Sequence record: NC_055721.1
DNA: 64,000 bases
Reading direction: 5' to 3' (one strand)
From: Escherichia phage EcS1
The stretch's first letter is position 1, and every line of letters starts with the position of its first letter. The notes under the pieces are model-generated. The model had not been told where the DNA came from. It worked only from the letters and a program-made list of their open reading frames with translations, and made no database searches. A program made the position numbers and the translations under genes. Positions 31,785 through 33,608 of the stretch are shown one piece after another.

Positions 31785-33608
31785 ATGATTAACGATCTGG
31801 TACTAAAAGACATTCCTTTTGTTGATGGGCTCCCAGATGATGGTCAGCAGCGTATCCGTTGGATACGCACTGGCGATTGTTTAAGTGCCGCTGAAACAAA
31901 AAATGGCAATGAAGGTTTTCTTAATACAGCAGGAGTAGAGATTCAAAAGAACGTAGTTCTTCTGGATGAGAATGCTGAAACTACTAAAGCCACTGTTAAT
32001 GAACTGATTGCTAACGTTAATAATATTAACGAAGCTCTTGAAATGGGATCAGATACTGAGATCATTAAACAAGTAGGCATTAACAAAGACAATATCGAAA
32101 TTCTTCAAGAGCATATGCAATTTGCAGAAAATGATATTGGTAATCTTATTACTGGACTAACTCAAGTAGCTGATGATGTTGGTCCTTATGACCAAGATGT
32201 TGACCCGTATTACCGTACAGTGCGTGATAACCTTGTATGGGTTAAAAAAGAAATGGGTCAATACCCAGGACAAGATTTTAATGGTCAATCTGTAGTTGGA
32301 AATGTCTCGACAGGTATGAAACGTCGTATCATTGAAAACAGTTCAGAAATAGCTAGTCAAGGTTCTCGTATTACCGAGTTAGAAGACAATTACGAAAACT
32401 CAGATATCGGTGCATTAACAATTGAAGTAAACAAACTTCGTAAAGAAGTAGGTCCTTCAACTGCGGCTAAAGCTGATACTTTGTATAAACGTACTGATAC
32501 ATTAGAAACAAAATCAGCTTCAATGGATCGTAATATCGATGAGATCGAAATAGCAATTGGTTTTGGTGGAACTCCTATTGATACTCGTGTTACTACAAAC
32601 ACTAATAGCATCTCTACACTTACTACTCAAATCACTGCACCTATTACAGGTCTTTCGCCACGTGTTGTTGTAATTGAAAATGCTATTGGAACAACCACAC
32701 AACCTGCTACTATTAACGGTAAAATCTTTGTTTTACGTCGTGATTTAGATGCACTATCTCTTGTAGTCGGAAGCGATACTTCATCTGGTCTTCGCGGTGA
32801 TGTTGCATGGCTGAACCAGCGCGTAGGTATTGTCCCACAAGGACAACAACCTGGTCCTACTACAGCATTTGGTCAGATTGCTACTTTATCTTCATTGGCT
32901 AACTCTAATGCTTCAGCTATTCAGGATATCCAAGCTGAAATTGGTAACAACACAACTGGTCTTAAAGGACAAGTAATTAGCCTGACAAGTATCATTAATG
33001 GTACTAACCCTAATGGTGTTACTGTCGAAGAACGTGGTCTTTTAAGAACTGTTAAGGCTCATGATGTAACAATTAAGACATTAATTCCAGAAGCCCCAAT
33101 TAATGGTAAATCTTATGTGCGTAAAGATGCCGCTTGGAGTGAGTCTAATGCAATTGATACGAGTACTTTAGTTGCTGAAGCTCCTAACGACGGTAAAGAA
33201 TACGTCCGTAAGAGTAAAGCCTGGGAAGAACTTGTTTTAACATCTTATTTGACTGATGCTGCTTCTGATAGCAAATTATATGGAAGACAAGATGGAGCTT
33301 GGACTGAAGTTGTTATTCCAAGTGTAACCGGATTTATCACAGATGCTCCTAAAGAAGTTAAAAACTTCGTACGTAATAATGGCGCTTGGGTTGCTATTAC
33401 TATTCCTACTGTGCCGGATGTTTCAGATTTTATTACTGATGCACCTAACGATACCAAATTATATGGTCGTAAGGCTGAAGCATGGGAAGAAGTTGTTATT
33501 CCTGCAGCTCCAGATATCACTAATTTGATTCCTGAAGCGCCTAAAGATGGTAAGGCTTATGTTCGTAAAGATGGGGCTTGGGTAGATATTACCACATTGA
33601 CTCCATAA
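31785..33608 (+). CDS. wac: fibritin (whisker antigen control) with tandem foldon-like C-terminal repeats
   Basis: 607 aa; long coiled-coil body; the C-terminus carries six copies of an [15 protein letters not shown]-like unit related to the T4 foldon ([27 protein letters not shown]). Confidence 0.85.
   Translation: [607 protein letters not shown]
33078..33605 (+). repeat. six tandem foldon-like repeats within wac
   Basis: [18 protein letters not shown] / [18 protein letters not shown] / [18 protein letters not shown] / [18 protein letters not shown] / [18 protein letters not shown] / [18 protein letters not shown]. Confidence 0.7.

Follow-up and report, generated by a model that had tools for sequence, protein, structure and literature searches.

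Can the small trimerisation module that ends a phage neck whisker be multiplied into a tandem array, and what would such an array build? The question is raised by the wac gene (fibritin, the neck whisker protein) of Escherichia phage EcS1, a relative of the genus Winklervirus. The gene lies on the + strand at 31785..33608 of a stretch of 64,000 nucleotides (nt; sequence record NC_055721.1), which is called the window in the following, and is an open reading frame (ORF) of 607 amino acids (aa) plus stop codon. The foldon of T4 fibritin nucleates the folding of the trimer, and through its C-terminal part that protein touches the long tail fibre close to the knee and joins in environmental sensing (PMC3797505). 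T4 fibritin has one foldon and a length of 487 aa, whereas the 607-aa EcS1 protein carries five extra foldon-like units ahead of its terminal foldon.

Every testable feature of a T4-type fibritin was found, and wac is a member of that family. The product matches PHROG 1056 'fibritin neck whisker' (E 1.8e-194) as well as Pfam Fibritin_C (E 2.6e-39), and it is identical (100%, all 607 residues) to the 'fibritin neck whisker' deposited for EcS1 in a 175,437-bp record; the name wac, proposed in an earlier sequence-only reading of this DNA, therefore stands. The gene sits between gp12 and gp13, an order that relatives share and that is also the order in T4, with which the EcS1 protein further has in common the N-terminal region, a segmented shaft and a terminal foldon. 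By analogy with T4-type fibritin, the product would form a homotrimer on the virion neck that holds the long tail fibres. Its nearest counterparts in the phage collection are fibritins of Winklervirus, namely those of the Serratia phages CHI14, X20, CBH8 and LC53, the Erwinia phages Virsaitis27, Vettismorki and Gravdalen and the Kosakonia phage Kc304, all at 62% identity to EcS1, while a megablast search of the same collection, which does not include EcS1 itself, with the wac DNA gave a single 166-nt match at about 78% identity.

The final 176 residues of the product are made up of six 26-aa units with linkers of 3, 0, 3, 6 and 6 residues between them, all on the + strand. Unit 1 (aa 432-457, nt 33078-33155) scores 31.4 bits with 46% identity to the T4 foldon and occupies the site of the sole foldon in single-foldon relatives. 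It is followed by unit 2 (aa 461-486, nt 33165-33242; 29.8 bits, 42%), unit 3 as the weakest of the series (aa 487-512, nt 33243-33320; 9.1 bits, 31%), unit 4 (aa 516-541, nt 33330-33407; 21.3 bits, 35%), unit 5 (aa 548-573, nt 33426-33503; 12.7 bits, 31%) and the terminal, canonical foldon, unit 6 (aa 580-605, nt 33522-33599; 61.2 bits, 65%), after which only the residues TP precede the stop codon. Identities to the T4 foldon were computed over 26 aa. The scores come from a hidden Markov model (HMM) trained solely on terminal foldons taken from 32 fibritins of other phages that have a single foldon, which avoids circularity, and Pfam Fibritin_C recovers five separate stretches of the 176-aa tail (E 7e-24). 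As with any repeats, there is a general risk that the units reflect a chance resemblance or an artefact of assembly, in which a repeat is collapsed or expanded, and nothing further speaks for such an explanation here. Chance is opposed by the fact that all six units score above every one of 1000 composition-preserving shuffles of the tail, the best of which reached 7.5 bits. The sequence-only reading had claimed six tandem units homologous to the foldon at 33078-33608, with the final one the most canonical; the independent HMM finds the same number, the mapped units agree with these coordinates, and unit 6 is closest to the T4 foldon by both score and identity.

The six units share a common signature, in which [D/E]5, A6, R15 and W20 occur without exception, while positions 7 and 13 each deviate in a single unit, namely by P7->A in unit 3 and Y13->F in unit 4. 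When 27 internal units taken from several proteins are compared, A6 and W20 never vary, and at least 90% of the units keep each of P7, Y13 and R15. This pattern of retained residues indicates that selection maintains the foldon signature in every copy. The units differ at their ends: unit 6 aligns to positions 1-26 of the foldon HMM, including the C-terminal VDITTL segment, while units 1-5 align to positions 1-20/24 only and continue with xEVVIP plus the linker. The hydrophobic C-terminal segment of the foldon (positions 21-27, VLLSTFL in T4) is thus present in unit 6 only, and units 1-5, which are devoid of it, should be called foldon-like rather than full foldons. Unit 6 also aligns to foldon chains of the PDB (phmmer). 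Judged by sequence, then, unit 6 is a foldon and units 1-5 are foldon-like.

At the DNA level identity among the units is 51-71%, and exact matches between pairs of units reach 14 nt at most. Tandem Repeats Finder reported no repeat in the wac region, and a direct-repeat finder recovered copies at 60-79% identity. Such divergence, together with the shortness of the exact repeats, implies that the copies are old. It also bears on the second half of the artefact explanation, as copies this different could be neither confused, produced nor miscounted by an assembler. In addition, the identical protein has been deposited for the complete 175-kb genome, and orthologous arrays are present in ten Winklervirus records (eight phages) and in a metagenomic contig. 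An assembly artefact is therefore excluded, and the probability that the repeats as a whole arose from chance or from assembly is practically negligible. What remains is that the foldon-coding segment of wac has, on the evidence of the aligned copies, been multiplied into six tandem units which have since diverged.

How far the number of copies varies was followed by running a unit HMM over 90 fibritin homologues, most of which have one unit. The Kanagawavirus fibritins of PEi26, IME523 and CIP9 have two, with a coiled-coil spacer of about 70 aa between them; in the JS98 fibritin the unit HMM scored the first motif only, the terminal motif PYVLVDNAWVLLSDFV being visible on reading the sequence. 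Variation in repeat number among related phages, as predicted in the sequence-only reading, is found in a series of syntenic wac genes with one (P0043), four (the metagenomic P0042), five (CHI14) and six units (EcS1), with P0042 and P0043 both confirmed as wac genes by the syntenic order gp10-gp11-gp12-wac-gp13-gp14-gp15. Units 1, 2 and 3 are orthologous one-to-one in EcS1, CHI14 and P0042, with unit 3 of EcS1 65% identical to that of CHI14. Unit 4 of EcS1 is a 29-aa insertion for which neither CHI14 nor P0042 has an equivalent. Unit 5 of EcS1 is the orthologue of CHI14 unit 4 (81% identity) and falls on a 32-aa gap in P0042, and the terminal units of the three proteins are 77-88% identical to one another. 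Conservation between EcS1 and CHI14 is 71% over aa 1-431, 31-65% in units 1-3 and 81% in each of the two C-terminal units.

The indels between the syntenic arrays thus comprise exactly one unit plus its linker (29 and 32 aa). At least one of these events must be recent, since CHI14 and P0042, despite 96% identity across residues 1-431, have five and four units, respectively, which speaks for a recent gain or loss of one unit. The sequence-only reading had further described the array as a likely site of recombinational length variation, and whole-unit gains and losses have indeed occurred, though at present the array is no hot spot of homologous recombination. Frequent unequal crossing-over between homologous copies was considered as the cause and rejected: the longest exact repeats within the arrays measure 9-14 nt, and exact repeats of at most 14 nt do not favour homologous exchange of this kind at present. 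The ends of the unit indels lie in a short repeated segment encoding WEEVVIP, which suggests that they may have arisen through recombination between very short homologous stretches and not through frequent exchange of homologous copies.

What does such an array build? That the tip might be longer or multivalent and sense its surroundings differently had been conjectured in the sequence-only reading. The model that we favour, and consider rather probable, is that the units form stacked trimeric layers which lengthen the tip of the whisker, with the terminal unit retaining its role as folding nucleus and the internal units serving as a spacer. In each chain of the trimeric whisker a unit would supply one beta-hairpin, so that the three chains together form a three-bladed, foldon-like layer, and six layers stacked on the three-fold axis would give a short beaded rod which extends the distal tip past the coiled-coil shaft, very roughly by 10 nm according to our own estimate from the size of one foldon. 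Unit 6, as the sole complete foldon, would keep the tasks of the T4 foldon, that is the nucleation of trimerisation and folding from the C-terminus and the contact to the knee region of the long tail fibre. For the internal units, the main task would be to set the length, and they would be gained or lost as whole units over evolution. The absence of the last foldon segment from units 1-5 and the low identity of units 1-3 between orthologues fit this spacer role.

Structure prediction, for which AlphaFold2 monomers only were used, places hairpins in the units, mostly at low confidence; in the foldon, a beta-hairpin covers positions of about 12-23. The full-length model (mean predicted local distance difference test, pLDDT, of 67) has beta-hairpins in units 1, 3, 4, 5 and 6, with high confidence for unit 6 only (pLDDT 80-85), and in a model of the last 207 residues, of low confidence throughout (mean pLDDT 44), a hairpin appears at the same register in all six. 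The predicted register, Y13-R15 / W20-x23, is therefore seen in five of six units in the full-length model and in six of six in the tail model, both being low-confidence monomers in this region. Except for one 4-residue turn, these monomer models predict no helix between units. Unit 6 gives a local Foldseek match to 4ncw over 22 columns with a root-mean-square deviation of 1.2 Å, while low-probability rows for the baseplate of phage JBD30 and the tail fibres of Agrobacterium phage 7-7-1 were not used because the model is unreliable.

Several observations weigh against the stacked-layer model. The internal units reach a pLDDT of just 37-61 in the full-length monomer, and values are low over aa 455-550 in the monomer models. 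Foldseek, run with the low-confidence model against the PDB, returned nothing significant except the local foldon match. The packing of units 1-5 may differ from that of a true foldon because they are devoid of an LLSTFL-like segment at the C-terminal end, and unit 3 exceeds the shuffle maximum narrowly and has Ala in place of Pro7. No natural tandem foldon array is among the PDB matches listed for four sequence queries (the 176-aa tail, a profile of 27 internal units, a minor tail protein of Sonora and a 16-unit metagenomic protein), of which two cover the best 60 matches, so that a weak native chain might lie beyond them, and the Sonora search covers all 42. The statements on whisker length and tail-fibre contact are drawn by analogy with T4 only, and no long-tail-fibre genes lie within the window.

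The low pLDDT over aa 455-550 is also what would be expected if unit 6 alone were a working foldon and units 1-5 a decayed tether, flexible or differently structured and without trimeric layers. Such a tether would likewise account for the match of the internal units to positions 1-20 of the foldon profile only, for the scores of 9-13 bits in units 3 and 5 and for the fact that units 1-3 are just 31-65% identical to their CHI14 orthologues. It is harder to reconcile with the retention of positions 5, 6, 15 and 20 in six of six units and of 7 and 13 in five of six, despite a DNA identity of 51-71%, with hairpins predicted in register in every unit (in the low-confidence tail monomer) and with indels that take exactly one unit plus its linker. 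We therefore regard the tether as unlikely, and a further argument against it comes from fibre proteins other than fibritin.

Unrelated phages also have such arrays in proteins annotated as tail or tail-fibre proteins, as a tblastn search with units 1-5 alone showed for Noxifer, PhiPA3, Ralstonia jumbo phages and Sonora, and also for Vp_R1, Vequintavirinae such as W70, BcepNazgul and S-CBS2. Where units were counted, there were four in Pseudomonas phage Noxifer, four in Stenotrophomonas phage Sonora and three in W70. When 1.84 billion cluster representatives were searched exhaustively with HMMER, 1196 proteins matched at E <= 0.001, 260 of them at E <= 1e-10, and tandem arrays occur in more than 1000 fibre-protein clusters. 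The best 144 of these 1196 have 3-16 units each, and the longest uninterrupted run is 16. Among the fusion partners of the arrays are collagen triple-helix repeats, the gp9/gp10 N-terminal domain and the YadA stalk, all of which are trimeric fibre modules. The 817 units of these 144 diverse proteins have a period of 21-32 aa, keep positions 3 and 23 hydrophobic and conserve [DE]5 in 98%, A6 in 95%, P7 in 92%, D9 in 89%, G10 in 76%, Y13 in 97%, R15 in 99% and W20 in 99%. Residues at the conserved positions are reported to form the core of the T4 foldon and the intersubunit salt bridge between Glu5 and Arg15 (Tao 1997; Guthe 2004; Habazettl 2009). A tether undergoing decay would not keep a signature that is 92-99% conserved in unrelated fibre proteins. 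Autonomous trimerisation, a further property of the foldon, may extend to the units.

The position of these arrays bears on a second alternative, in which the foldon layers form a multivalent surface, each able to bind the long tail fibre or some ligand of the host or the environment, and in which the firmness or the conditions of fibre retraction would be changed. That the C-terminal part of T4 fibritin both contacts the long tail fibre and senses the environment is in keeping with such a surface, and other types of fibritin have immunoglobulin-like (Ig-like) domains at their C-terminal end (PMC3797505); the surface-exposed positions of the units are, moreover, highly variable. Set against this is the location of the arrays elsewhere, which are mostly found in the middle of the fibre ahead of a separate C-terminal domain and lie within 12 residues of the C-terminus in only 7 of the best 144 proteins. 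We consider a multivalent surface quite improbable. The mid-fibre location fits a shaft role, and the two-foldon fibritins together with the arrays of 3-16 units show that foldon-like units can also lie inside a fibre. A stack of trimeric layers agrees better than either the tether or the multivalent surface with the pattern of conservation and with the place of such arrays in the shaft of other proteins.

More generally, tandem foldon-like units, of which EcS1 has six and other phage fibre proteins up to 16, might represent a distinct and structurally uncharacterised type of trimeric fibre shaft made of stacked three-bladed beta-hairpin layers in steps of about 24-32 residues, a proposal that we hold tentatively and judge to be nearly balanced, if somewhat short of probable.

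Some further architectures were noticed in the course of these comparisons. In the tail fibres of Noxifer (L008) and Escherichia phage W70 (L009), long collagen-like Gly-X-Y repeats are followed by three to four tandem units and a C-terminal domain of about 100 aa, a layout which is the natural counterpart of the engineered (GlyProPro)10-foldon, e.g. PDB 1nay. The fibritin of Yersinia phage MHG19 (P0058, 593 aa) and similar homologues of 588-593 aa have one foldon-like unit at about aa 435-453, which lies inside the fibre, the C-terminal end being taken up by a domain of about 140 aa that is not a foldon and is rich in beta-type sequence. Two metagenomic proteins, P0128 (1012 aa), which has a fibritin-like N-terminus, and P0129 (853 aa), carry five and eight foldon-like units, respectively, dispersed among other repeated segments, and in P0129 the segments between units recur as 'FSGDYNDLTNKPDIPSDVxDLTD'.

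How does the EcS1 array relate to what has been described? The literature search on foldon repeats, EcS1 and Winklervirus found no description of three or more tandem foldons among the papers covered, in which the two-foldon JS98 type is the only one published. Two-foldon fibritin has been explained by a segment of the gene having been duplicated or deleted (Latypov 2007; Letarov and Krisch 2013, PMC3797505). JS98-type and Kanagawavirus fibritins resemble EcS1 in having more than one foldon-like motif and in the position of the first, at about aa 432-455, but have two motifs with a coiled-coil spacer of about 70-270 aa, whereas EcS1 has six with linkers of 0-6 aa. Assignment of EcS1 to the JS98 two-foldon type is ruled out by the six motifs and the lack of any coiled coil between them. 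Letarov and Krisch 2013 distinguish eight C-terminal types of fibritin, none of which is a tandem array (PMC3797505). In fibritins of the RB43 type, the copy number of a small C-terminal module also varies among related fibritins (PMC3797505), the module being one or three Ig-like domains and not a foldon.

The closest known proteins are the Winklervirus orthologues, which share with EcS1 an overall identity of 62%, the tandem architecture and the orthology of individual units, and which differ in having five units and 584 aa, unit 4 of EcS1 being the extra one. Their records are annotated only as 'fibritin neck whisker', and the one Winklervirus paper covered holds no description of the tandem array. 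The tail-fibre arrays of Noxifer, PhiPA3, W70, Sonora, BcepNazgul and many metagenomic proteins have the same signature, h-x-[DE]-A-P-x-D-G-x-x-Y-x-R-x4-W, at a period of 21-32 aa in 3-16 copies. They are mostly internal shaft elements followed by a C-terminal domain of about 100 aa and often preceded by collagen-like repeats, whereas the EcS1 array ends the protein and is carried on a coiled-coil whisker. Among known structures, 566 distinct PDB chain sequences match the EcS1 tail; nearly all of these are engineered fusions, and the E5R foldon monomer (PDB 2kbl) is also among them. The PDB matches listed for the four queries comprise T4 fibritin, engineered foldon fusions and, through non-foldon regions, two T4-type gp10 baseplate proteins and one unrelated hypothetical protein. 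Only two chains among these listed matches, 8wro and 8wtj, have more than one foldon; like EcS1 they carry tandem foldons, here two joined by a short Gly/Ser linker, but in them the T4 sequence was duplicated by design and fused to a coronavirus spike, in contrast to a natural diverged array.

The EcS1 array is consequently a real but modest variant: the gene has already been deposited, relatives with five units exist, and the module is common in metagenomic fibre proteins. That five-unit Winklervirus arrays had been deposited unremarked and that arrays are widespread in tail fibres lowers the novelty, so that the finding is a useful annotation and a structural lead rather than a new system. 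It gains interest from the wide use of the foldon, which serves vaccine design and structural biology as one of their most common trimerisation tags, while natural proteins with many foldon-like units in a string appear to have been neither described nor solved. If the units do stack as trimeric layers, they would provide a simple modular fibre shaft together with a ready-made set of diverged foldon sequences. Should the broader proposal of a stacked-layer shaft also be true, the number of units in fibritin would tune the reach of the whisker tip along the long tail fibre, and the array would provide protein engineering with a natural form, adjustable in length, of its most used trimerisation tag. 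The series of one, four, five and six units in close relatives shows that the tip of fibritin still changes by whole modules in recent time, which qualifies the published view of its C-terminal module as essentially fixed long ago (PMC3797505). The same series offers a natural experiment on the effect of whisker length on the retraction of the tail fibres.

Ahead of the array, the N-terminal neck-attachment region and the segmented coiled-coil shaft extend over 31785..33077 on the + strand (aa 1-431), as delimited from homologue alignments and AlphaFold2. A conserved neck-attachment region of about 50 aa is present, with alignments to hundreds of T4-like fibritins beginning at residue 1-7, and the first 50 aa hold residues conserved in at least 90% of 33 homologues. 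The PHROG 1056 match spans aa 1-458. In the monomer model 14 helices separated by short loops lie between aa 45 and 433, and these would pack as a long segmented coiled-coil shaft.

The surrounding DNA is that of a T4-like phage, the remainder of the window being the usual T4 late-gene block. Upstream of wac lies the short tail fibre gene gp12 (30231-31775), whose ORF product contains the three domains of T4 gp12. Its N-terminal part carries short repeats of the form T-V-x-G-[IVL]-x-[RK]-[ILY]-[AS]-T-x-x-E, e.g. TVKGIIRISTQQE, TVLGITRYSTLAE and TVTGLLRLATAAE. Downstream, three ORFs at 33673-36271 are about 82% identical in nt sequence to gp13, gp14 and gp15 of relatives (neck and tail-sheath-stabilizer). 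Identity to relatives is only 55-76% for gp12 and 87-92% for gp13.

Eight bases past the wac stop codon a pattern scan found a terminator-like hairpin, GGGAGAC-UUCG-GUCUCCC (33616..33633, + strand), which is followed by a T-rich tail, TTTCTT. Its predicted stability is -13.2 kcal/mol (z = -4.3), and none of 200 shuffles was as stable. After the hairpin (within 33616-33649), about 25 nt before the start codon of gp13, stands CATAAATAC, a sequence similar to the late-promoter motif of T4, TATAAATA. In the metagenomic relative with the four-unit wac an additional 195-aa ORF without a Pfam match (L011, 6445-7032) lies between gp14 and gp15, and neither the EcS1 window nor L012 has it at the corresponding place. 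The stretch of Serratia phage LC53 that a gp13-gp15 query matched carries an annotated Mob-like homing endonuclease.

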